NCBI RefSeq assembly: GCF_002854065.1
Contig: NZ_CP024147.1
Reading direction: 5' to 3' (one strand)
Length of the DNA: 64,000 nt
Origin: Escherichia coli
GTDB taxonomy: Bacteria; Pseudomonadota; Gammaproteobacteria; Enterobacterales; Enterobacteriaceae
In this document: one piece after another, positions 4,345 to 49,500 of the stretch
Layout of the letters: each line of letters begins with the position of its first letter
Numbering within the stretch: position 1 is the first letter of the stretch
Position numbers and translations under genes: made by a program
The notes under the pieces: generated by a model
Told to the model about the DNA's origin: nothing
The model's database searches: none
Seen by the model: the letters and a program-made list of their open reading frames with translations, nothing else

Positions 4345-5118
4345 ATGAAATCTGCCACCTCTGCGCAAAGACCTTACCAGGAAGTCGGGGCGATGATCCG
4401 CGATCTGATCATAAAGACGCCGTACAATCCTGGCGAACGGCTGCCGCCGGAGCGTGAAATTGCAGAAATGCTTGATGTCACGCGGACGGTGGTACGTGAA
4501 GCGCTGATCATGCTGGAGATCAAAGGGCTGGTGGAAGTGCGCCGGGGTGCCGGTATCTATGTTCTTGATAGCTCAGGCAGCCACAACACAGACAGTTCGG
4601 ATGCCAACGTCTGTAATGATGCGGGTCCTTTTGAGCTGTTACAGGCGCGTCAGTTACTGGAAAGTAACATCGCGGAATTTGCCGCTTTGCAGGCTACCCG
4701 CGAAGATATCGTCAAAATGCGTCAGGCATTGCAACTGGAAGAGCGTGAACTGGCTTCCAGCGCGCCGGGTAGCAGCGAAAGCGGTGATATGCAGTTCCAT
4801 CTCGCCATTGCCGAAGCAACGCATAACAGCATGCTGGTGGAGTTATTCCGTCAGTCCTGGCAGTGGCGGGAAAACAATCCAATGTGGATCCAGTTGCACA
4901 GCCATCTGGATGACAGCCTGTATCGCAAAGAGTGGTTGGGCGATCACAAACAGATCCTCGCCGCGTTAATCAAAAAAGATGCCCGAGCGGCGAAGCTGGC
5001 AATGTGGCAGCATCTGGAAAACGTTAAGCAACGTCTGCTGGAATTCTCGAACGTTGACGATATTTATTTTGACGGCTATCTGTTTGATTCATGGCCGCTG
5101 GATAAAGTCGACGTCTGA
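4345..5118 (+). CDS. uxuR: GntR-family repressor of the uxu regulon
   Basis: Track ORF, 257 aa, N-terminal GntR-type HTH (ERLPPEREIAEMLDVTRTVVREAL). Confidence 0.95.
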   Translation: MKSATSAQRPYQEVGAMIRDLIIKTPYNPGERLPPEREIAEMLDVTRTVVREALIMLEIKGLVEVRRGAGIYVLDSSGSHNTDSSDANVCNDAGPFELLQARQLLESNIAEFAALQATREDIVKMRQALQLEERELASSAPGSSESGDMQFHLAIAEATHNSMLVELFRQSWQWRENNPMWIQLHSHLDDSLYRKEWLGDHKQILAALIKKDARAAKLAMWQHLENVKQRLLEFSNVDDIYFDGYLFDSWPLDKVDV

Positions 5119-5130
5119 CTTATTATAATA

Positions 5131-5162
5131 AGCGCAAGGGTAAACGTTCCTTGCGCTTTCTT
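5131..5162. terminator. Hairpin plus T-run between convergent uxuR and yjiC (likely bidirectional terminator)
   Basis: gcgcaagg-gtaaacgtt-ccttgcgc stem-loop followed by tttctt. Confidence 0.5.
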
Positions 5163-5258
5163 AAATTAAGAAGTCGCAATGAGTATTGCTTTGTAAATTG
5201 CAGGGTATTGTTTAAATATCTGTATAACCTGAATATTAGTACTCATTCTTCTCAGTTG

Positions 5259-5978
5259 CTATTTACCAATATAATTCCATTCACCATTTTTTAATTCAAA
5301 CAGTTCTGGAAGAGATGACGGTTGCAGAGTCATGCGTTTGAGTGGCGCATCTTCATCACCGGGGATAACTTTATATCCCATTTTTACATGGATCTCCGCG
5401 GTACCAGGATAGGCTTCTATACCAATGATTGGGTCATTTCCCATCTCAATATTAGCATTAAGTAATGCGGCAAGGGCGAATCCGGAAGAATTTGCTACCC
5501 CTGAGACAGTTATTATCTGATCAATATAGATATCAATTCTTGGCTGCTCATTGGTCCATCTTTTTGCCTGAGAAACTGGAAGGGTTGAAATATATCCTAT
5601 CGTGGTTCCGGCGTAACCTGGAACATTGCAACCAGGGCCTAATGTTATTTCATGAACTGTATAGTCCTCAACAGGATCGAAAGGGCTCTTCATAAATAAA
5701 TTTAGCCGTAAACCTTCTGCTAATTCTGTAGCAGCATGCGCCTTTTTACATATGCCACCATATATTTCGTCTAAAGCTGAGGTGATTTTCAAGTTTCGAT
5801 AGAGCATACGTCCTGTTGTTGTAATACCATTGAATTCTCTGCATGTTTCTGTCACATAATTAAATGGCCAGGACTCTTTACTAATATCAAGTTTTCTAAT
5901 TTCGACAACGCTTTTTCCATCGTAATTATGGTTATTGCCACGAGCAAGAGGCGGAAGATAGATATTTTCCGTATCCAT
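5259..5978 (-). CDS. yjiC: Uncharacterised protein YjiC
   Basis: Track ORF, 239 aa, ATG verified (MDTENIYLPP...). An in-frame stop lies 25 codons upstream, so no long extension is possible in this strain. Confidence 0.7.
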   Translation of the reverse strand: MDTENIYLPPLARGNNHNYDGKSVVEIRKLDISKESWPFNYVTETCREFNGITTTGRMLYRNLKITSALDEIYGGICKKAHAATELAEGLRLNLFMKSPFDPVEDYTVHEITLGPGCNVPGYAGTTIGYISTLPVSQAKRWTNEQPRIDIYIDQIITVSGVANSSGFALAALLNANIEMGNDPIIGIEAYPGTAEIHVKMGYKVIPGDEDAPLKRMTLQPSSLPELFELKNGEWNYIGK

Positions 5979-6760
5979 GCGTGCACGTTCATGTTTACGT
6001 GTTAACTCACTGTCGACTTTTGGATGATGAAGGAAGTGATTATATGTAATAATTTAACTCTGAAGGGCATTGCTTAATGGCATAGACATAATAGTTACCT
6101 TTATGAGTATTTCACTGATGCTTAGAAAAATAGATAAATTTTTCTGTGGTAAAAAGAGAAGTAAACAAATGACATGCATGTTTCTGTTGTAGTGATATCA
6201 ACTCTACACAGTGATATTAAATGGTGGGAAACACTCTAAAGTATCAAAAAACGCTCATTTAAAATTATTTGCATGCAATTTAAAAGCATATCTTATTACT
6301 AATTGGAATTTGATGTTGCTATATTGATGTCTATATTAATAATGCCTGTGAATGGTATTTTTGATGTATTTGATATGTTATCAATTTATATTATTTACAA
6401 ACTAATTGTTTTAAATAATACATAGCTGATTATGCGGAAATAAATAATTTCCCACCGGAATTAAGTAGCGGTGGTGACAAGTATTTTCATCTACGTAACT
6501 ATTCGGAATATTCAGAATATACTAGCGGTTTTTTTTTGAGTTTGATGATTTTTATCAAATCATGACTTTTTTCCTGAAAAGTCAGTAGATATTCATAGGC
6601 AAGTAAGGTTTTATACTTTGCTGACAGGATTCAGGCCTGTCTCAGACTGACATGGATGTAATGAACAAAAGGGAATGGCTATGGAAAATGAGCATCAATA
6701 CAGTGGTGCCCGGTGTTCAGGGCAAGCCGCATATGTTGCTAAACGTCAGGAGTGCGCAAA
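5979..6760. promoter_or_regulatory. 780 bp AT-rich divergent intergenic region upstream of iraD (multi-promoter leader), with several inverted repeats
   Basis: Long AT-rich non-coding stretch with no ORF of 60 aa or more; palindromes at about 6541..6584 and 6621..6645. Confidence 0.4.
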
Positions 6761-7153
6761 ATGATGCGCCAATCACTTCAGGCTGTTTTACCTGAAATTT
6801 CAGGCAATAAAACGTCACCGCTGCGTAAATCAGTATGCAGCGATCTCCTCACTCTTTTTAATTCTCCTCATTCGGCATTACCGTCATTACTTGTTTCAGG
6901 CATGCCCGAGTGGCAAGTGCATAACCCGAGCGACAAACATCTCCAGAGCTGGTATTGCCGTCAGCTGCGTTCTGCACTGTTATTTCATGAGCCACGGATT
7001 GCGGCGTTGCAGGTTAATTTGAAAGAAGCGTACTGCCACACTCTGGCGATCAGCCTTGAGATAATGCTGTATCACGACGATGAATCGCTAACGTTTGATC
7101 TGGTCTGGGATAATGGCGGTTGGCGCAGTGCGACGCTGGAGAATGTCAGCTAA
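6761..7153 (+). CDS. iraD: Anti-adaptor protein IraD (RssB inhibitor)
   Basis: Track ORF 6752 (GTG) trimmed to ATG 6761 ([17 protein letters not shown]...), 130 aa; CAGGAG Shine-Dalgarno 9 nt upstream. Confidence 0.85.
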
Positions 7154-8057
7154 GCACAATCTCCAGCTCGCGCAGTTCACGCCAGAAGCGTTCGGCAACT
7201 GGATTCATGCGGGTATTCATCCGGTATGCATAGGCCTGAATCGGGATCACCAGTTCGTCCCGATTCAGTACAACGAGCTGCCCGCTGCGAATTTCTTGTT
7301 GGATGGCGTATTCCGGTAGCCAGGCAATCCCACAGCCGTCGAGGGCAACCTGCTTTAAAAGCTCGCTCATCGAAGAGACAAAAAAGGTGCTGAAACTTAA
7401 CTCACTGTGGCGCGTCAGGGTGCGATTAATCAATCGCCCCATGTAGGAGTTGCGGCTGTAATTCAGTAACGGAAAGTGTGGCTGCGCGAGGTTAAAAAGT
7501 GCTTCTCCGTGTTCGTCACTGGCGCAAACGGGGAACAATTGAGATTCAAATAAGCGAATGTGGTCAAACGGCGCTTCCAGCAAATCTTCGTCGTGAAAGG
7601 AAAAAATACAGTCACTTTGCCCTTCACGCAGTTTATCGACCGCTTCATCGACATCAATAGCTTCAATTGCCCAGGTAAAGAGCGGCGGCATCTGGCTGAT
7701 AATGGACGGTAACAGCCCGAGGGAAAGAGAGTGTGCAGCGGCTATTTTAATTTTGCGTTGCGCGTAATCGCTGCCACCACGGAGTTCTGCAAGGTTGCTC
7801 TCTAACTGTTGCAACAGATGGCGGATCTGCGAATGGAATATTTTACCTTGTTCCGAGAGTTGCAGCGGCGTCACCTGGCGGTTAAACAATTCAACGCCAA
7901 TCGCCTGTTCCAGCGCACGGATGCGGCGGCTGAATGCCGGTTGCGAGACGTTGCGACTGACTGCTGCCTGGGAAAAATTGCGGCATTTTTCCAGGGTCAG
8001 AAAATCATAAAGCCATTTAGTTTCAATATTATGCAAAACCGCACCACAGTCATCCAT
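7146..8057 (-). CDS. hypT: LysR-family regulator HypT (YjiE)
   Basis: Track ORF, 303 aa, N-terminal LysR HTH ([29 protein letters not shown]). Confidence 0.9.
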
Positions 8058-8121
8058 TACGTTTTACTCTGTCAGCCGCCCTTGCGGGCATTCTACGTCC
8101 ATTCGGGCGGCTGACAACCGT

Positions 8122-9294
8122 TTATGCCGTTTCAAACGTTCCTTTCACGCAGGCTTTGCCGTCTTTGACCATCAGCTTGCCGCGAGCGTATACCTGCTCA
8201 ATGCGTAATTCTGGCGTCATGACCAGTAAGTCTGCGTCATTGCCTGGCAGAATTTCGCCTTTCCCGCTCAGGTTAAGGAAACCGGCTACGCTACTGGTGA
8301 GCGGGCGCAGGGCATCGCTGATACTGAAATCATAATCTTTGACCAGCACCTGCACGGTTTCCAGCAACGTTTCAAAACCGGCAACACCGATATGGGTTAA
8401 ATTCCCTTCGTCATCGAAGAACGGCTGGCTACCGTTGCCGTCGGAGCTGAGGGTGACGCGTGCCAGCGGAATACCTGCCTGAACGGCGCGGGCAATACCT
8501 TCGGCAGGGGCGACTGGTTCGTCAATGCTGCTGGTGATATCGATGGTGCCGCCTTTGCGCGCGAACTCCAGCGCCTGCTCAAACAACGGAACGTTGCGGT
8601 TAACGTGGGTCGGCAGCAACTTGCTAATCGGCACATCGCAGTTTTCCAGCAGGTCATAGACAGGCTGTAACGCCTTTTTGCTGTCGCCCATGTGGAACAC
8701 GGTGACGCCAGGTTTACCGCCGAGCAAACCGCCAACGCGGGATTCCGCCGCCATATTAGCCAGGTGATAAACGTCCGGTGCGGCAGAACGGTGATCAGAG
8801 ATGGCGCATTTCACGCCAATCACGCGATCGATAATCGCCACGTCTTTTTCCACGGAACCCGTAATAGTGCGGGAAGGGACATGATAAGCGCCGGTCAGCA
8901 TCCAGGCGCTGATGCCTTCTTCATTGAGCGCACGGGTCTTGGCGAGCAGGGATTCCGGGTGGCGAGAGATAGAGTCGGTGCCCAGCAGACCAACCACTGA
9001 CGTGACGCCTGCTTCCGTCAGACGACTTAACGCCACTTCCGGCGTGCGCGTCGTGGGACCTGCTTCGCCGCCACCGCCAATCAAATGGACGTGTTGATCA
9101 ATAAAACCTGGGCAGAGGATCTGCCCGCTGAGATCGACAACCGTGCAGTCCGGTACAATGTCAGAAGGGATATTACTGGCAACGGCGATAATTTTGCCGT
9201 TAGCGACGAGGACATCGCAAATTCCCCGATCTTCCGGCGCATACAAATGCGCTCCCTGCAGCAGGGTAAAACCGGCTGCGGTATAATCAATCAT
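8122..9294 (-). CDS. iadA: Isoaspartyl dipeptidase
   Basis: Track ORF, 390 aa, amidohydrolase-type metal-binding HxH motif (IDQHVHLIGGG). Confidence 0.9.
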   Translation of the reverse strand: MIDYTAAGFTLLQGAHLYAPEDRGICDVLVANGKIIAVASNIPSDIVPDCTVVDLSGQILCPGFIDQHVHLIGGGGEAGPTTRTPEVALSRLTEAGVTSVVGLLGTDSISRHPESLLAKTRALNEEGISAWMLTGAYHVPSRTITGSVEKDVAIIDRVIGVKCAISDHRSAAPDVYHLANMAAESRVGGLLGGKPGVTVFHMGDSKKALQPVYDLLENCDVPISKLLPTHVNRNVPLFEQALEFARKGGTIDITSSIDEPVAPAEGIARAVQAGIPLARVTLSSDGNGSQPFFDDEGNLTHIGVAGFETLLETVQVLVKDYDFSISDALRPLTSSVAGFLNLSGKGEILPGNDADLLVMTPELRIEQVYARGKLMVKDGKACVKGTFETA

Positions 9295-9306
9295 GGTAAC
9301 TCCTTG

Positions 9307-9768
9307 TTAAACAATAAGCTGCATAACCCAGATCGACAGCAATGCGTTAATCACGCAGACCGTAATGATATGCGGGTAATATTTGGCATTCACTTCGGCT
9401 GTCCCCAGGCAGCGACCGACATTTTGCACCGGGTTGCCCATTAAATACATCGCGGGCAGTAAAACGGTGACATCGTGACCGGTTAATGCGCCAGCGGTTG
9501 CCAGACTGGCGGCAACACCGACTGCGCCACCCATACTCATTAATGCGGCTAAAAGGACGGTTGCCGCTTCACCGGGTAATCCCCACAGCGCCATTACGGG
9601 TTCACAGATATGCCCCACCCAGTCGAGCAGGCCGGTAATTTTCAGCGCCTGAATGATGACAAACGCCATCACCACGTTTGGCAGCAGGTTGGTCGTGGCG
9701 ATAGTAAAGCCACGGCGCGCACCATCGATAAACATATCCATGATGTTTTTGCGGACCTGAGTTGTCAT
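9307..9768 (-). CDS. yjiG: Inner-membrane protein YjiG (SpmB/nucleoside-transporter-like half)
   Basis: Track ORF, 153 aa, hydrophobic. Confidence 0.85.
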   Translation of the reverse strand: MTTQVRKNIMDMFIDGARRGFTIATTNLLPNVVMAFVIIQALKITGLLDWVGHICEPVMALWGLPGEAATVLLAALMSMGGAVGVAASLATAGALTGHDVTVLLPAMYLMGNPVQNVGRCLGTAEVNAKYYPHIITVCVINALLSIWVMQLIV

Positions 9769-10448
9769 GCTTGCGCTCCTTGCGTTGGGTTGCGACGTTC
9801 TTCGAAGTTAAGCCAGACGCGCAAAATGTTGGCTCCGACAAATTTAAACACCAGGATGACTGCTAAAGGTACGATTACGGACGTGCCCAGAAAGGCAAAC
9901 ACCGCGACGCCGGAAGAGAAGTAGTTGGTGATAATGGCGCTACCGCTGGTTTGATATGCGGCGAAAATCACTTTATCGCGTTCGGTAATTTCACCTTCCT
10001 GCGCCAGCTCTTTGGTCATACCTGCGGCGGCATCGGTGTTTTGCAGGTTAGCGATCAGCGCCAGCGAGCAGATCCCTGGAATGCCCAACAACGGTTTTAG
10101 CACTGGCGTCATTAACTGCTGCGCGGCGCGTGATCCGCCAAGACCATCGGTAATTGAAATAATCCCCAGAGAGAGAATGACTGACGGTGCCAGCTCCAGC
10201 GCAAAGAGAAAGCCATCTTTAGCCCCCGCGCCACCCGCGCCGCGAAACGAGGTGGTGGCTCCGTTCGCACCAGGCAGTTGCCCAAACGATCCGTTCAGAA
10301 CGGAAAAATCAAAAACGCGCCACCAACTGTCTGTCCCGGAAAAAACACCGGAAAAAAAGATTATGGTGAGAAAAAAAGCCAGATACCCTTTAATGCCCAC
10401 TTTTTCTGTCGCCAGCTCCCCGGCTACAGCATCCCCTTGTTGTGTCAT
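9765..10448 (-). CDS. yjiH: Inner-membrane protein YjiH
   Basis: Track ORF 9765..10577 trimmed to ATG 10448 (MTQQGDAVAGE...), 227 aa; 4-nt overlap with the yjiG start. Confidence 0.8.
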   Translation of the reverse strand: MTQQGDAVAGELATEKVGIKGYLAFFLTIIFFSGVFSGTDSWWRVFDFSVLNGSFGQLPGANGATTSFRGAGGAGAKDGFLFALELAPSVILSLGIISITDGLGGSRAAQQLMTPVLKPLLGIPGICSLALIANLQNTDAAAGMTKELAQEGEITERDKVIFAAYQTSGSAIITNYFSSGVAVFAFLGTSVIVPLAVILVFKFVGANILRVWLNFEERRNPTQGAQA

Positions 10449-10696
10449 AACAATCCCCATTGTTTTTTGTGTTTGTGTGTTGCTTGAGCCAGGAAAATTC
10501 CTGGAGCTGAAAAACCTTATCAGCCATGTGGGTATGGGGAAAATGCAAGTATGTTTCTGACTATGCGTTTTTTGCATAGCGGTAAAATTACGCTGTGTGG
10601 AAAAGGTTCTACGCAGGATTGAGTTGCAGAAAATTCATAAACCCAGTGACAATGACATAGTAAATAAAAAACAGATAATCCAGGGACGAAAACGCG

Positions 10697-11251
10697 ATGG
10701 CAAAGTACAACGAAAAAGAGCTGGCGGATACGAGCAAGTTTTTAAGTTTTGTCCTCCGACACAAACCGGAGGCGATTGGTATCGTACTGGACCGTGAAGG
10801 ATGGGCGGATATCGATAAGCTCATACTTTGTGCCCAAAAAGCGGGCAAGCGGTTAACCCGTGCATTGCTGGATACCGTGGTTGCCACCAGCGATAAAAAG
10901 CGTTTTAGTTATTCCAGTGATGGTAGGTGCATCCGCGCGGTTCAGGGGCATTCGACTTCGCAGGTCGCTATTTCCTTTGCCGAAAAAACACCGCCACAGT
11001 TTCTCTACCACGGTACGGCAAGCCGTTTCCTTGACGAGATAAAAAAACAGGGGCTGATTGCAGGTGAGCGTCACTACGTACATCTCTCTGCTGATGAAGC
11101 AACGGCACGCAAAGTGGGAGCAAGACACGGATCGCCGGTTATTTTAACCGTCAAAGCACAGGAAATGGCGAAACGAGGCCTCCCTTTCTGGCAAGCGGAA
11201 AACGGGGTCTGGCTGACATCAACGGTTGCGGTCGAATTTCTTGAGTGGTAA
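10697..11251 (+). CDS. kptA: RNA 2'-phosphotransferase (Tpt1/KptA family)
   Basis: Track ORF, 184 aa, [25 protein letters not shown]... Confidence 0.9.
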
Positions 11252-11263
11252 GGGAAACACTCC

Positions 11264-12442
11264 TCATGAAGTGACCACTTGCAGCTTAAATAATTGTACT
11301 GTGCTGATAAGCGCAGCAATAAACAACGCCGCCGCGCCGCAGAGAGTGGCGCCGGCAAGCGCCGATGTTCCATTGCCGAGCATACTGGTCAGCGCCGGGC
11401 CGAGGATTTGTCCAATGCCGTAAATGAGCGTCACAAAGCCTAAAAGATTGAGATTTCCCGGTACGCTCAGTTGGCGGGCGATAGTCATCACCAGAGATGT
11501 CGTGCCCATAAAGGTACCGCCAAAACCAAGACTGCTGATGATAAGCAAGAGAGGCGAGTCGCTGGCGAGAGTAAGCAGCACACAGATAGCCTGCACCAGC
11601 AAATTCGCCGTCAGGCAGGGCAAAGCCCACCAACGTTTTGCTGCCCATAGCCAGCCAAAGCAACCAGGCACAATTGATAAGCCGACTAACGTCCAGAGAT
11701 GGGCGGTTAACAATGGTGAGCCTGCATCTTTCGCCATGAGCGGCAGGTAAGTCGCGACGATGATATAACCAAATCCCGCCAGGCCGTACAGAATAGCCAG
11801 TAACCACCAGCTCATTATCTGTTGCTCCGTTTTTGCCAATGGCATTGGTGTGATGGCGTGTTTTTTCGAGGGCATTAAAAGCGTAAGTGCAATCAGCATC
11901 ATGCCAGAAAGCGCCCCGGCGCCTTGCCATAACGTTTGCGAGGAGAGGTCAAAATGCAGGCCTGCCAGAACATATTCATTGCCCAGTGCGATGCCAATGC
12001 CAACGCCAGAAAACAAAGCTGCCAGCACAAAAGGATGGCGCGTGTGCTGCATAATCAGCGTCGAACCAAAAATCAGCATACCGGCGCTGGCGACACCTGC
12101 CAGGACGCGAATCAATAACACCAGAATAAATGGCAGCAACCATGCCATTGCGAGGATCAACAACCCGCTCGCCAGGGCAGAAGCCAACAGAAATGGGCGC
12201 AGGCGCGATGGCTGGTGAAATGCGCCAAACGAAAATAGCAGACTGCCAGCCAGATACCCCGCATAGTTGCCGCTGGCAATCCACGAGAGCTGGCTAAATG
12301 AAAACGATCCTTCCGCCATCATGACGGGCAACATAGGCGTATAAAGGAAGCGGCCTAAACCCATACCTAAGGTCAGAACCAGCATCCCGAAAAGCGCGGT
12401 GCTGAAAGAAAAGCGTTCTACGGGATGCGAGGGCGAAGGCAT
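11264..12442 (-). CDS. yjiJ: MFS transporter YjiJ
   Basis: Track ORF, 392 aa, 12-TM-like hydrophobic profile. Confidence 0.85.
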
Positions 12443-12509
12443 GTTTAACCTTGTTTGTCATTTTTGTTGTTAACAAGTTAATAACAAAAAGGTGAAACAT
12501 GCCAGCCTG

Positions 12510-15617
<3,108 letters not shown>

Positions 15618-15732
15618 GATTTTCCTTCCCCGTACCACGGGAGATAATGAAAAGAGGCCACATTATTACCATTCTTTTAGTGTGGTTTATTTGATCTCTC
15701 TCGCGGTTAGCCACTTAGTTTTTCATGGATTT

Positions 15733-17013
15733 CTATAAATTGCCGAGGGGGAACAAGGCCGGGAGCTGCGACAGCAAATACAAAATAAGTCCAATACAAC
15801 CGCCAACCAGCGTACCGTTGACACGGATAAACTGGAGATCTTTGCCGATATTTAACTCGATTTGCCGCGACATGTCCCGTGCGTCCCAGCTTTTTACCGT
15901 GTCGCTGATATGGCGAGTCAGGAATGCGGAAAACTCAGGCGCAATGCGGTGTGCGGCTTGTTCCAGATGACCATTTAACGACGCCCGCAAGGCATCATCG
16001 GCAATTAACGTTTCGCCAAACCATTGACCAGCCCGCGCGATACGTTCTTTCACACGAGAATCTTCACTGTTGATATCCGCTTTCAGCCATTCCCGTAAAT
16101 CCCCCCACAATTCACTGAGATAGCGGTTAAAAGCTTCATCTTCTTTCAGATAGCTTTTTACGGCATCGGCTCGCGCCGCCATTTCCGGATCGTTTTTCAG
16201 TTTCTCGATCAGGGCGAAGGTAGCGCGATCAAACGCATGGCGGATCTGATGCGCACGATCGCGGCTGATATCATCAAGCAAAGAATTCACCGCGTCAGAA
16301 ACCAACTCCGCGCTATGTTCGCCCAGCCATTCAGTGGGCAAAATTTTGGCTTTCAGTGGATGCTCGCTCTCCAGCCAGCGAACAATTTGCTGGGCAATAA
16401 ACTTGCGCGATTTATCGCGCTGGAGAAGGGCGATCAACTGTGCGATCAGCGTATCCAGCAGCACCTGATGACGATCGTTTTTAGTCATACTCTCCAGCAT
16501 CAACGCACTGGTGCCAGAAAGATCGACTTTATCAATCGCCCGGTGGACCGCGCGCTTAAGCAGGCGCTGAATACGCGCATCATCGGTTAGTTCAAGAAAA
16601 CCGCTCATGATCTGCAACAGATGCTGACCAACGCGGCGGGCGTTTTCTGGCTGACTAAACCAGTTGCCAATCAACAACGCCGGTTCGTGACGTCGAATCA
16701 ATGCCACCAGCGATTGGGTATCGAGAAATTTTTCCTGCACGAACTGGCCGAGATTTTCGCCAATCCGGTCTTTATTACGCGGAATAATCGCCGTATGACG
16801 AGAAATGATCGGAATCGGCACGCGGCGAAACAGCGCCACCACCGCAAACCAGTCCGCCAGCGCGCCGACCATCGCCGCTTCAGCAATCGCCTTCACGCCG
16901 CTCACCCAAAAATTGGGCGGCAAAAACAGCGTAACGACAAAGGTAGCAGCGGCGATAAGCAGTAAAGAGAGCGCCAACATTTTGGCGCGTCTGAGTTCAA
17001 TGAGTTTATTCAT
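15733..17013 (-). CDS. yjiN: Inner-membrane protein YjiN (DUF445 family)
   Basis: Track ORF 15733..17145 trimmed to ATG 17013 ([25 protein letters not shown]...), 426 aa. Confidence 0.8.
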
Positions 17014-21073: not shown

Positions 21074-21277
21074 TTAACAACAGCGCATACCGCCTTTACC
21101 ATCGCCGCCGTAGCGCGCGTTCTGGCGTTCGCGGAAGAATTCTTCATAGCTCATGTACGGCTTGTCGGGATGGTTGGTCTTCATATGCTCGACGTAGTTG
21201 TCGTAGTCTGGAATGCCAATCAACATCTTTGCCGCCTGGCCGAGATATTTTTTTGCCTGTCCTAAGTTACCAAACAT
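21074..21277 (-). CDS. yjiX: Small protein YjiX (DUF466), co-transcribed with btsT
   Basis: Track ORF, 67 aa, C-terminal MRCC. Confidence 0.85.
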
Positions 21278-21326: not shown

Positions 21327-23477
21327 TTAGTGGTGCGAAGAGATCTTCACGCCGCCTTCCGGGATTGGAACGTACGGTGTTTCTTTGTCAGTACGTTTGT
21401 CGCTGTTACGCACCGCAAGCCAGGTTTTGAAACCGTAGAAGATGATGCTGTACACCACAATCAGGAACAGAATACTCAGGCCCGCGTTGGTGTAGTTGTT
21501 CACAACGATGTGGTTCATGTTGGCAATCTGCTGCGCCGTCAGGTCAGTACCGTTAGCAATCTTCTCTTTGTACTGGCTTGCCATGTAGAAGAAGCCTTCC
21601 ATCTGCGGGTTGGTGCTGAACAGTTTCAGACCCAGCGCCCAGGTGGTGCAGATAAGCAGCCATACAGCCGGAACAACAGTTACCCAGATGTATTGGGTGC
21701 GCTTCATCTTAATCAGCACAACGGTGCCCAGTACCAGCGCTACGGCTGCCAGCATCTGGTTGGAGATACCGAACAGCGGCCACAGGCTCTTAACGCCGCC
21801 CAGCGGATCGACCACGCCCTGATACAGCAGGTAGCCCCACAGACCCACACAGCCCGCAGTACCGATGATACCGGCAACCAGAGAGTCGGTTTTTTTCAGG
21901 AATGGGATGAAGTTACCCAGCAGGTCTTGCAGCATAAAGCGGCCAGAACGGGTACCCGCATCCAGCGCGGTCAGGATGAACAGGGCTTCGAACAGAATAC
22001 CGAAGTGATACCAGAAGCCCATGTCAGCCATCGGCAGCACTTTGTGGAACACATGAGCGATACCTACCGCCAGCGTCGGCGCACCACCTGCACGGTTCAG
22101 GACAGAAGGCTCACCAATGTCTTTCGCGGTTTGCAGGATCTGCTCTGGCGAAATCACGAAGCCCCAGGAGCTGACGGTCGCCGCCGCGTGTGCGGTAACG
22201 TCTTTCAGCTGCGCCATGATGATCGGCGCGTTCTCGCCACCCATTTCATGCAGGTTAGGCATGGTGATGCCAAGGCCCGCAGGCGGGGTATTCATCGCGA
22301 AGTAAAGACCCGGTTCGATGATGGACGCAGCAACCAGCGCCATAATCGCCACGAAGGACTCCATCAGCATTGCGCCGTAGCCAATGAAACGCGCGTCGGT
22401 TTCGTTAGCCAGCAGTTTCGGCGTCGTACCGGAAGAGATCAGCGCGTGGAAGCCAGATACCGCACCACAGGCGATGGTGATGAACAGGAACGGGAACAGA
22501 GCGCCTTTCCACAGCGGGCCAGTACCGTCAATGTACTGGGTCATCGCAGGCATTTTCAGTTCCGGGTTCAGCACCACGATACCCAGCGCCAGGCCGACGA
22601 TAACGCCGATTTTCAGGAAGGTTGCCAGATAGTCGCGCGGTGCGAGGATCAGCCACACCGGCAGCAGTGCGGAAACAAACGCATAGCCAATCAGCGCGAA
22701 GGTAATGGTGGTGTCTTTAAAGGTCAGTGCCGGACCCCAGTACGGATCGTGAGCAATCACGCCACCGAAGTAGATAGAGGCAACCAGCAGCACGATACCA
22801 ATGACAGAGACTTCACCCACACGCCCCGGACGGATAAAGCGCATGTAGATACCCATAAACAGCGCAATCGGTACGGTTGAGCAAACGGTGAAGACACCCC
22901 ACGGACTTTCGGCCAGGGCTTTAACCACAATCAGCGCCAGGACGGCGAGGATGATGATCATGATTAAGAAACAGCCAAACAGCGCGATAGTCCCCGGTAC
23001 TGGTCCCATCTCTTCTTTGATCATCTCACCAAGAGATGCGCCATTACGGCGAGAGGAGATAAACAGCACCATAAAGTCCTGAACCGCACCGGCCAGCACG
23101 ACCCCCGCCAGCAGCCACAGCGTGCCAGGCAGGTAGCCCATCTGCGCGGCGAGAACCGGACCCACCAGCGGACCAGCACCGGCGATAGCGGCGAAGTGGT
23201 GACCAAACAACACGTAACGGTTGGTCGGAACGTAGTTCAGACCGTCGTTGTTAATAACCGCAGGCGTCGCGCGCGTGGGGTCGAGTTTCATCACCTTCTG
23301 GGCGATGTACAGACTGTAGTAGCGATACGCCACCAGATACACCGACACAGAGGCGACCACGATCCACAGGGCGCTGACGTGCTCCCCCCGACGTAATGCA
23401 ACTACCGCGAGGCAGAATGCACCGATGATTCCGAGAATCACCCAGGGTATGTGCTTGAATATCTTTTTAGTATCCAT
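21327..23477 (-). CDS. btsT: CstA-family pyruvate/H+ symporter BtsT (YjiY)
   Basis: Track ORF 21327..23492 trimmed to MDTKKIFKHIPWVILGIIGAF..., 716 aa. Confidence 0.9.
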   Translation of the reverse strand: MDTKKIFKHIPWVILGIIGAFCLAVVALRRGEHVSALWIVVASVSVYLVAYRYYSLYIAQKVMKLDPTRATPAVINNDGLNYVPTNRYVLFGHHFAAIAGAGPLVGPVLAAQMGYLPGTLWLLAGVVLAGAVQDFMVLFISSRRNGASLGEMIKEEMGPVPGTIALFGCFLIMIIILAVLALIVVKALAESPWGVFTVCSTVPIALFMGIYMRFIRPGRVGEVSVIGIVLLVASIYFGGVIAHDPYWGPALTFKDTTITFALIGYAFVSALLPVWLILAPRDYLATFLKIGVIVGLALGIVVLNPELKMPAMTQYIDGTGPLWKGALFPFLFITIACGAVSGFHALISSGTTPKLLANETDARFIGYGAMLMESFVAIMALVAASIIEPGLYFAMNTPPAGLGITMPNLHEMGGENAPIIMAQLKDVTAHAAATVSSWGFVISPEQILQTAKDIGEPSVLNRAGGAPTLAVGIAHVFHKVLPMADMGFWYHFGILFEALFILTALDAGTRSGRFMLQDLLGNFIPFLKKTDSLVAGIIGTAGCVGLWGYLLYQGVVDPLGGVKSLWPLFGISNQMLAAVALVLGTVVLIKMKRTQYIWVTVVPAVWLLICTTWALGLKLFSTNPQMEGFFYMASQYKEKIANGTDLTAQQIANMNHIVVNNYTNAGLSILFLIVVYSIIFYGFKTWLAVRNSDKRTDKETPYVPIPEGGVKISSHH

Positions 23478-23683
23478 AGTAAAACCTGGCATGTATTGAT
23501 TAATAGTTGGCCGAAGCCGTTCTAGGTTTGCGTTGCGTTTGAGGAGGTAAATTGACCGCTATCCTGTAGTGATGTTGCCAGAGTTACGCGCGCGTAAAGT
23601 AAGGTAAATAACTGAGTGGTTATTTTAGGGATGTAAGCGGTCAGTTTTGCGGTTGAGCGGCAAAGGCGTCGTTTAAGTGACGA

Positions 23684-23711
23684 TAAATATGTGATTCATA
23701 TCACATATTTA
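23684..23711. promoter_or_regulatory. Near-consensus CRP site AAATATGTGATtcatATCACATATTT upstream of btsT
   Basis: Perfect 11-bp inverted repeat with TGTGA-N6-TCACA core; CRP assignment is by consensus match. Confidence 0.55.
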
Positions 23712-23796
23712 TATTGTGAGTAATTTATGTAAATAATGGCTTTTTAAATTCAGAGTGTGAATAAAATTACTCGGCGTAATCTCCGCGGGATATTCA

Positions 23797-23823
23797 TAAA
23801 GTTTTTCCTTTCCTGGCCGAAAA
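23797..23823 (+). promoter_or_regulatory. Sigma-28 (FliA) class-3 promoter of tsr: TAAAGTTT-N11-GCCGAAAA
   Basis: Matches the sigma-28 consensus TAAAGTTT-N11-GCCGATAA about 30 nt upstream of the tsr ATG. Confidence 0.6.
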
Positions 23824-23853
23824 TCTTGCATCGGTCCACAGGAAAGAGAAACC

Positions 23854-25518
23854 ATGTTAAAACGTATCAAAATTGTGACCAGCTTACTGCTGGTTTTGGC
23901 CGTTTTTGGCCTTTTACAACTGACATCAGGCGGTCTGTTCTTTAATGCCTTAAAGAATGACAAAGAAAATTTCACTGTTTTACAAACCATTCGCCAGCAG
24001 CAATCCACGCTGAATGGCAGCTGGGTCGCGTTGTTGCAGACGCGTAACACCCTCAACCGCGCGGGTATCCGCTACATGATGGATCAGAATAATATTGGTA
24101 GCGGTTCAACCGTTGCTGAGCTGATGGAGAGTGCCAGTATTTCGCTGAAACAGGCGGAAAAAAACTGGGCGGATTACGAAGCGTTGCCGCGTGACCCGCG
24201 TCAGAGCACCGCCGCAGCGGCAGAGATCAAACGTAATTACGATATTTATCACAATGCGCTGGCGGAGCTGATCCAACTGTTAGGTGCAGGCAAAATCAAC
24301 GAGTTCTTTGATCAGCCGACCCAGGGATATCAGGACGGTTTCGAGAAGCAGTATGTGGCTTACATGGAGCAAAACGATCGGCTCTATGATATCGCCGTCA
24401 GCGATAATAATGCCTCCTACAGCCAGGCGATGTGGATTCTGGTGGGCGTGATGATCGTCGTACTGGCAGTCATCTTCGCCGTCTGGTTCGGTATTAAAGC
24501 CTCGTTGGTAGCGCCAATGAATCGCCTGATTGACAGCATTCGTCATATTGCAGGCGGCGATCTGGTGAAACCGATTGAGGTGGATGGCTCTAATGAGATG
24601 GGGCAACTGGCAGAGAGTTTGCGCCATATGCAGGGAGAGCTGATGCGTACCGTCGGTGATGTGCGCAACGGGGCCAATGCCATCTATAGCGGTGCCAGCG
24701 AAATCGCTACCGGCAATAACGATCTCTCTTCGCGCACCGAGCAACAGGCCGCTTCGCTGGAAGAGACGGCAGCCAGCATGGAGCAACTGACCGCAACGGT
24801 GAAACAGAACGCCGAAAATGCGCGCCAGGCCAGCCACCTGGCGTTAAGTGCTTCTGAAACGGCGCAACGCGGCGGCAAAGTGGTAGATAACGTGGTGCAG
24901 ACTATGCGCGATATCTCCACCAGTTCGCAGAAAATCGCCGATATTATCAGCGTAATTGACGGCATTGCCTTCCAGACCAATATTCTGGCTTTGAACGCGG
25001 CGGTTGAAGCAGCGCGCGCGGGTGAGCAAGGGCGCGGTTTTGCGGTGGTCGCGGGTGAAGTGCGTAATCTGGCCCAGCGCAGCGCTCAGGCGGCTCGTGA
25101 AATTAAAAGCCTGATTGAAGACTCGGTGGGGAAAGTAGATGTTGGCTCTACGCTGGTCGAAAGCGCAGGGGAAACAATGGCGGAGATTGTCAGTGCCGTG
25201 ACCCGCGTGACGGACATTATGGGCGAAATTGCTTCTGCTTCTGATGAGCAGAGCCGTGGTATCGATCAGGTTGGCTTAGCGGTTGCTGAGATGGACCGGG
25301 TAACTCAACAGAACGCTGCGCTGGTGGAAGAATCTGCCGCTGCCGCCGCCGCGCTGGAAGAGCAGGCCAGTCGCCTGACCGAAGCTGTGGCAGTGTTCCG
25401 GATTCAGCAACAGCAGCAACAGCAGCGTGAAACATCGGCTGTGGTAAAAAACGTGACGCCAGCTACGCCGCGTAAAATGGCAGTGGCAGATAGCGGGGAG
25501 AACTGGGAAACGTTTTAA
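23854..25518 (+). CDS. tsr: Methyl-accepting chemotaxis protein I (serine chemoreceptor)
   Basis: Track ORF, 554 aa, ends with the NWETF pentapeptide; carries a 7-residue poly-Q tract just before the C-terminal tail. Confidence 0.95.
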
Positions 25519-25527
25519 TCGCCATAA

Positions 25528-25560
25528 AAATGCCCGATAAGCAAAATGTTATCGGGCATA
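25528..25560. terminator. Bidirectional intrinsic terminator between tsr and yjjL
   Basis: gcccgataa-gcaaaatg-ttatcgggc hairpin flanked by A/T runs. Confidence 0.6.
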
Positions 25561-29296: not shown

Positions 29297-29345
29297 TTTG
29301 TAGGCCGGAGAAGATGTGTAGGTCGCACCTTATGCGACCTACACA
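29297..29345. repeat. REP-like palindromic element downstream of lgoD
   Basis: tgtaggccgga... plus palindrome tgtaggtcgcaccttatgcgacctaca. Confidence 0.4.
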
Positions 29346-29356
29346 TCAGTCAGAAA

Positions 29357-43285: not shown

Positions 43286-43634
43286 CCCTTCCTTATTAGC
43301 CGCTTACGGAATGTTCTTAAAACATTCACTTTTGCTTATGTTTTCGCTGATATCCCGAGCGGTTTCAAAATTGTGATCTATATTTAACAAAGTAATGACA
43401 TTTCTGACGGCGTTAAATACCGTTCAATGCGTAGATATCAGTATCTAAAGCCGTCGATTGTCATTCTACCGATATTAATAACTGATTCAGAGGCTGTAAT
43501 GGTCGTTATTCATCACCCATCGCTTTTGTGATGGCGACCATTGACTTCTGTAGAGGGTGAAGTCTCTCCCTATTCAGCAATGCAACCTCGTGTTGCCAGG
43601 CTCAAATTACGAGCAAACATACAGGAATAAATCG

Positions 43635-49303: not shown

Positions 49304-49500
49304 CTTCTTTTCCTTTTATGCCGAAGGTGATGCGCCATTGTAAGAAGTTTCGTGATGTTCACTTTGATCCTGATGCGTTTGCCACCACTGACGCATTCAT
49401 TTGAAAGTGAATTATTTGAACCAGATCGCATTACAGTGATGCAAACTTGTAAGTAGATTTCCTTAATTGTGATGTATATCGAAGTGTGTTGCGGAGTAGA

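Follow-up and report, generated by a model that had tools for sequence, protein, structure and literature searches.

The palindromic CRP box between btsT and tsr is probably an upstream co-activator site of the btsT promoter, with a geometry kept across Enterobacterales

At class III CRP promoters, CRP acts together with a signal-specific activator, as with AraC at araBAD, MalT at malK/malE and MelR at melAB. The promoter of btsT (yjiY) is like these in needing both CRP and a specific activator (BtsR), in placing CRP upstream of the activator sites and in keeping the spacing fixed; it is unlike the textbook cases in that CRP is paired with a response regulator of the LytTR type, which has three direct-repeat boxes, and in that its CRP site would lie farther upstream, at about -132.5 from the inferred start. 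The cstA promoter offers a second likeness: it also drives a gene for a CstA-family transporter, it is activated by cAMP-CRP and CsrA represses translation (PMC7730263). Its CRP site, in contrast, lies some 80 nt upstream of the start and it needs no two-component activator, whereas btsT is strictly dependent on BtsS/BtsR (PMC7730263). A third comparison, the CRP sites of deoP2, comes from within the window itself (by which we mean the whole 64-kb stretch of Escherichia coli DNA analysed here): these sites were recovered by the same scan as the btsT site and stand in the same SELEX table (PMC3105977), but they lie in tandem, are imperfect (15/22) and act with CytR, while btsT has a single box with a perfect core.

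The nearest precedent is the K-12 site itself. Shimada et al. (2011; PMC3105977) obtained a peak for the spacer yjiY<>tsr by genomic SELEX-chip with purified cAMP-CRP, and supplementary file 4 of that study names under this peak the box TGTGATTCATATCACA at 4.58952 Mb, which in older MG1655 coordinates is exactly the present site; sequence and locus are those of the K-12 yjiY(btsT)<>tsr box, from which the site itself does not differ. The spacer was given there as a divergent target and neither gene was chosen. Transcription of btsT/yjiY needs CRP-cAMP and is catabolite-repressed, according to papers that cite Kraxenberger et al. (2012), and deletion of crp abolishes the activity of a PbtsT-lux reporter (PMC7730263); the PbtsT reporter fragment spans -212/+88 and, if numbered from the start inferred below, includes the CRP box. 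The gene is further controlled by BtsS/BtsR, LeuO, CsrA and YpdAB. The CRP site of the btsT promoter is already known and the general logic is already in the literature; what the present analysis adds is modest, namely a cross-genus footprint with invariant geometry and an hpa-linked dimorphism that parts the box from tsr.

The palindrome and its CRP core

The spacer between btsT and tsr carries a perfect inverted repeat at 23683-23712 (arms of 13+13 nt, 100% complementary, 30 bp spanned) around a 4-nt TCAT centre, its asymmetry being confined to those four central bases. The features of the locus are as follows:

21074-21277, minus strand: yjiX, downstream of btsT on the same strand
21327-23477, minus strand: btsT (yjiY) coding sequence, 716 aa, pyruvate:H+ symporter, ATG at 23477
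23683-23695: left arm of the inverted repeat, ATAAATATGTGAT
23687-23708, no strand assigned: 22-bp CRP site ATATGTGATTCATATCACATAT, centre 23697.5 (MG1655 4,591,499.5)
23690-23705: CRP core TGTGA-N6-TCACA, TGTGATTCATATCACA, the sole exact match in the window
23700-23712: right arm of the inverted repeat, ATCACATATTTAT
23797-23823, plus strand: predicted tsr sigma-28 promoter, TAAAGTTT-N11-GCCGAAAA, perfect spacing, outside the CRP module
23854-25518, plus strand: tsr coding sequence, serine chemoreceptor, ATG at 23854

A first-pass annotation of this DNA had described a near-perfect 22-bp palindrome at 23684-23711: the inverted repeat is real and its arms are perfect, but the size was inexact, the symmetry spanning 30 bp and exceeding the earlier limits by one base on each side. 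No inverted repeat with arms of at least 13 nt and a spacer of at most 8 nt appeared in any of 60 Markov-simulated windows, where the longest arm was 12 nt. The exact core occurs once in the window against 0.04 expected, and was seen in 4 of 100 shuffles; scored by consensus matching only, without a true CRP weight matrix, the 22-mer ATATGTGATTCATATCACATAT agrees with the CRP consensus AAATGTGATCTAGATCACATTT at 17 of 22 positions, the top score in the window. The runner-up score of 15/22 is shared by two sites, the published deoC-region boxes at 49412-49433 and 49465-49486, whose recovery by the same scan serves as an internal positive control. With the exact core unique, the consensus score highest and the box named in the CRP SELEX table, the annotation was right to place a CRP-type site upstream of btsT, and the question of binding in vitro, on which it made this claim hang, had in effect been answered already by the purified-CRP SELEX peak with the exact box (PMC3105977).

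The whole btsT-tsr spacer is 100% identical to that of many E. coli chromosomes. The palindrome is also identical in K-12 MG1655, where the box lies at 4,591,492-4,591,507, and the spacer differs from that of MG1655 at three places: 23721 (G for A), about 23769 (a 1-bp deletion) and 23814 (T for A). The last falls in the N11 spacer of the tsr sigma-28 promoter, and no recognised element is touched by any of the three.

Several other repeats and partial sites were met in the window. One of the deoC-region boxes (yjjI<>deoCABD) is a single base off the sequence listed for K-12, and 43369-43390 (AATTGTGATCTATATTTAACAA) has a good left CRP half-site, with 14/22 matches to the consensus. The longest inverted repeat of the window, at 29313-29347, has 15-nt arms (GATGTGTAGGTCGCA-CCTTA-TGCGACCTACACATC) and, judged by K-12 coordinates, falls between the convergent genes lgoD and opgB; a terminator is probable here, or else a REP-like element. 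Another, at 25530-25559, with 11-nt arms (ATGCCCGATAA...TTATCGGGCAT), is located in the gap where tsr and lgoT converge and is probably a terminator common to both.

Geometry of the btsT promoter across Enterobacterales

Loci of btsT were collected from 80 Enterobacterales species representatives, and 82 loci were scanned. TGTGA-N6-TCACA with at most one mismatch is found upstream of btsT in 76 of the 82, and three further loci with enough upstream sequence have a box with two mismatches at the same place; of the remaining three, two lack enough upstream sequence and one (L070) was left out. The anchored alignment (A3, 79 sequences) has 30 perfect boxes, 46 with a single mismatch and three with two, which brings all 79 within two mismatches, and the box reaches as far as Erwinia, Rahnella and Leminorella. 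It stands 190-230 nt upstream of the btsT ATG in nearly all loci, and about 123 nt farther where the leader carries an insertion. In A3, information content is 1.24 bit per column over the CRP 22-mer and 1.58 and 1.96 bit per column over its half-sites, 1.63-1.80 over three ACCGCTYA boxes and 1.49 over a TCTGGCAAGATC-type element; on the tsr-side flank it is 0.09 bit per column.

The insertion of some 123 bp in the btsT leader is present in some Escherichia and Citrobacter (about 1375-1497 of locus L082, and also loci L002, L004 and L014). It resembles an ERIC/IRU repeat (GTGAATCCCCGGGAGCTTATAA, other strand), is absent from the window and from K-12, and would make the CsrA-regulated leader of btsT longer.

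Between the CRP box and btsT, the conserved columns resolve into four elements:

23654-23661, minus strand: distal BtsR (YehT)-type box GCCGCTCA, 1.63 bit per column in A3, offset 44 from the CRP core
23634-23641, minus strand: middle BtsR box ACCGCTTA, conserved, offset 64 from the CRP core
23613-23620, minus strand: proximal BtsR box ACCACTCA, conserved, offset 84-85 from the CRP core
23572-23580, minus strand: predicted extended -10 element TGGCAACAT (consensus TGGCAAGAT), 1.49 bit per column in A3

The distal box reads ACCGCTCA in the hpa-type allele of E. coli (see below) and in most other genera. Two ACCGCTYA-type boxes have been described for YehT/BtsR, and the distal box sits 20 bp upstream of them. 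It is conserved as well as the two others, and it lies inside the YehT-binding oligonucleotide of the Jung laboratory ('yjiY YehT bs'; PMC4847170), which corresponds to window positions 23666-23609 on the minus strand, contains all three boxes and stops 17 bp short of the palindrome.

The TCTGGCAAGATC-type element can be read, from its letters, as an extended -10 (TGn followed by CAAGAT). A sigma-54 reading of its conserved TGGCA was tried and set aside: by eye, the GC element is missing at the -12 spacing, and the extended -10 fits. This element would put the btsT start near 23565, and so, exactly, would the reporter name -212/+88, provided that +88 immediately precedes the ATG. From such a start the centre of the CRP site would fall at about -132.5, give or take a few bases, and the centres of the BtsR-type boxes at about -92.5, -72.5 and -51.5. 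The TG of the extended -10 stands at offset 124-125 from the start of the CRP core, and this offset, like the 44, 64 and 84-85 of the BtsR boxes, is kept in nearly all 79 species, while the sequences of the spacers vary freely. Frozen lengths with free sequences suggest a constraint on the face of the helix or on bending, and the distances from site to site are 20-21 bp or 40 bp, which would put the CRP and BtsR sites roughly on one helix face. Sole-activator CRP sites are found at -61.5 to -92.5 (class I) or -41.5 (class II); here the site would be at about -132.5, counted from the inferred start, and BtsR is also required. The arrangement is instead class III-like, with candidate sites for a second activator at fixed spacing between the CRP site and the core promoter.

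The extended symmetry of the palindrome does not belong to this conserved footprint. Arms of 13 nt are found only in the K-12-type allele of E. coli, one of the two spacer forms described below, while most species have arms of 5-6 nt (TGTGAT/ATCACA); in a third E. coli variant the arms are intact and the centre alone differs (TTAT), and Citrobacter sp. MGH106 has arms of 16 nt. A search of 5,426 complete genomes found the 50-bp segment here at 95% identity or more in at least 2,040. The promoter-proximal flank ATCACATATTT is moderately conserved, and in the K-12-type allele the distal flank mirrors it. The short arms elsewhere, together with what would be a chance mirroring of the distal flank, point to an extended symmetry that is derived and allele-specific, with no conserved requirement behind it. 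The site is thus unusually symmetric in this DNA, as the first-pass annotation put it, with perfect 13-nt arms, but this is a trait of one allele that is not conserved across species.

One box between two divergent genes

A class 3 flagellar gene, tsr owes its CRP dependence to indirect effects via flhDC and fliA. Its predicted sigma-28 promoter agrees with the RpoF-holoenzyme SELEX peak reported at yjiY<>tsr. The annotation had nevertheless held the box to be shared with the divergent tsr promoter, and in one respect it was correct, as the site does lie physically in the common spacer here. Where the spacer has its short (K-12-type) form, a single CRP dimer could in principle also control the tsr promoter directly: about 133 bp separate the box from the predicted tsr sigma-28 start in the window, much the same distance as to the btsT start, the distance from box to tsr promoter is constant at about 125.5 bp in Salmonella and several Citrobacter species, and the SELEX study lists the pair yjiY<>tsr with no gene chosen (PMC3105977).

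What tells the two genes apart is how the spacer varies. Across genera the distance to tsr changes while the box stays fixed to btsT: box and tsr sigma-28 promoter are about 78 to 140 bp apart where tsr is adjacent and about 0.7-1.5 kb apart in others, and in 43 loci, Klebsiella and Raoultella among them, no match to this promoter was found within 2.5 kb of the box. The spacer is moreover dimorphic within E. coli. Its K-12-type form of 376 bp is present in about 2,750 of 5,389 genomes, and the remaining genomes match only both ends of it; in about half of E. coli genomes a cluster of about 11 kb for 4-hydroxyphenylacetate (hpa) stands between btsT and tsr. The dimorphic segment covers 23648-23792 of the window, 1640-1760 of locus L082 and 4610-16401 of locus L083. 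Upstream of the middle BtsR box, from the distal box to the CRP box, the hpa-type allele is strongly diverged in sequence and unchanged in the positions of its sites: it has a perfect TGTGATTGAGATCACA directly after the hpaC terminator, 56 nt from the middle BtsR box just as in the K-12-type allele. On the far side of the cluster, hpa-positive E. coli have 118 bp between hpaR and tsr, with a sigma-28 promoter, and no CRP box was found in this 118-bp gap.

The box thus has neither a fixed position relative to the tsr promoter nor a regular co-occurrence with tsr; it travels with btsT. Given also the 0.09 bit per column of the tsr-side flank and the separation of box and tsr by the hpa cluster, we consider direct control of tsr from this site improbable. 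The CRP site belongs to btsT, and the annotation's shared control of tsr is not supported: the distance to tsr is variable, the hpa cluster parts the two, and tsr has no CRP box where it is so parted. A sigma-70 scan of the spacer found two consensus matches beside the CRP box where 1.2 are expected, neither conserved, and a class II promoter toward tsr drawn from them was rejected, their number being at chance level and their conservation nil.

A probable role of CRP as co-activator of btsT

In all likelihood the palindrome is the cAMP-CRP site of the btsT promoter and serves an upstream co-activator that works with BtsR. In the absence of glucose, cAMP-CRP would bind TGTGATTCATATCACA, the pyruvate-activated LytTR response regulator BtsR would occupy the ACCGCTYA boxes just downstream, and the two together would let RNA polymerase start at a weak extended -10 promoter. 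The promoter would then behave as an AND gate, in which external pyruvate combined with catabolite derepression leads to synthesis of BtsT and probably of the products of yjiX-yjiA behind it. At about -132.5 the site is too distant for a simple class I or class II contact, so that CRP would act as an upstream co-activator, most likely one whose DNA bend and helical face must suit the BtsR array. The conserved spacing suggests that bending and phasing may be at work at this promoter, and the effect of crp presumably acts through the box at 23690-23705. The carbon-starvation control of the pyruvate transporter proposed in the first-pass annotation agrees with the published CRP and catabolite control of btsT. 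So does its mention of yjiX with the facts at the locus, this gene lying downstream of btsT and being co-regulated with cstA1/yjiY in Salmonella yehUT mutants.

A bolder version can be built on the same geometry: the CRP site and three BtsR boxes would form a rigid four-site module with the extended -10, frozen across Enterobacterales, in which CRP acts from about -132.5 purely through helical phasing and DNA bending with a LytTR regulator, and the derived 13-nt arms of the K-12-type allele could strengthen binding or add a direct input to tsr. To our knowledge such a mode has not been described for CRP. Taken as a whole, we hold this version to be speculative and rather unlikely.

It could also be that CRP binds the box and that the box is dispensable, the crp phenotype arising indirectly, by way of cAMP-dependent physiology, of relief from LeuO/H-NS silencing or of the expression of btsSR. 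The CRP SELEX targets also include the yehU<>mlrA spacer (Shimada et al., 2011; PMC3105977), and part of the crp effect on btsT could for this reason be indirect; LeuO is a repressor of btsT, and the site is unusually far upstream. In a CRP ChIP-seq table for ETEC H10407 (a short list of 111 peaks) the interval from gntP/uxuA to yjjI/deoC is empty, which also speaks for an indirect effect; in the part of the supplements of a Crp ChIP-exo paper that was examined the locus is absent both by gene name and by coordinate; and the RegulonDB 'gold standard' supplements, consulted for a start site, gave no match. A dispensable box is, however, hard to reconcile with its conservation and with spacing to the BtsR boxes and the -10 that is invariant in 79 species, some of them with GC-rich flanks where AT-driven silencing is unlikely, and a plasmid reporter that contains the box is fully inactive in a crp mutant (PMC7730263). 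We therefore regard a wholly indirect crp effect as very improbable.

That the palindrome is no CRP site at all but a site for FNR-type or other regulators, an RNA hairpin or terminator, or a scar of hpa insertion or deletion can scarcely be credited: as RNA it does fold at -15 kcal/mol (z = -3.9), by eye it matches 8 of 10 FNR consensus positions and it lies where the two E. coli alleles differ, but the spacer was selected by purified CRP (PMC3105977), both halves carry the CRP-specific G/C (GTGA/TCAC) and not the T/A of FNR, the long arms of a hairpin are missing in most species, 23400-23900 holds no terminator-like site and the AT-rich stem has no T-run, and the box, present in Erwinia, Rahnella and Leminorella, is older than the E. 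coli alleles. Among the candidates rejected in detail, an FNR site would read TTGAT-N4-ATCAA where the sequence is GTGAT-TCAT-ATCAC, with G/C replacing T/A in both halves; an intrinsic terminator would call for a GC-rich hairpin followed by a T-run, and the fold at -15 kcal/mol merely reflects the palindrome.

The comparative result has a modest value of its own, in that it assigns the box firmly to btsT over tsr. With its unusually rigid geometry, this CRP-BtsR promoter could also serve in studies of the cooperation between CRP and LytTR regulators. For the cell, the site accounts for the restriction of a high-affinity pyruvate importer to conditions in which pyruvate is at hand and better carbon sources have run out.
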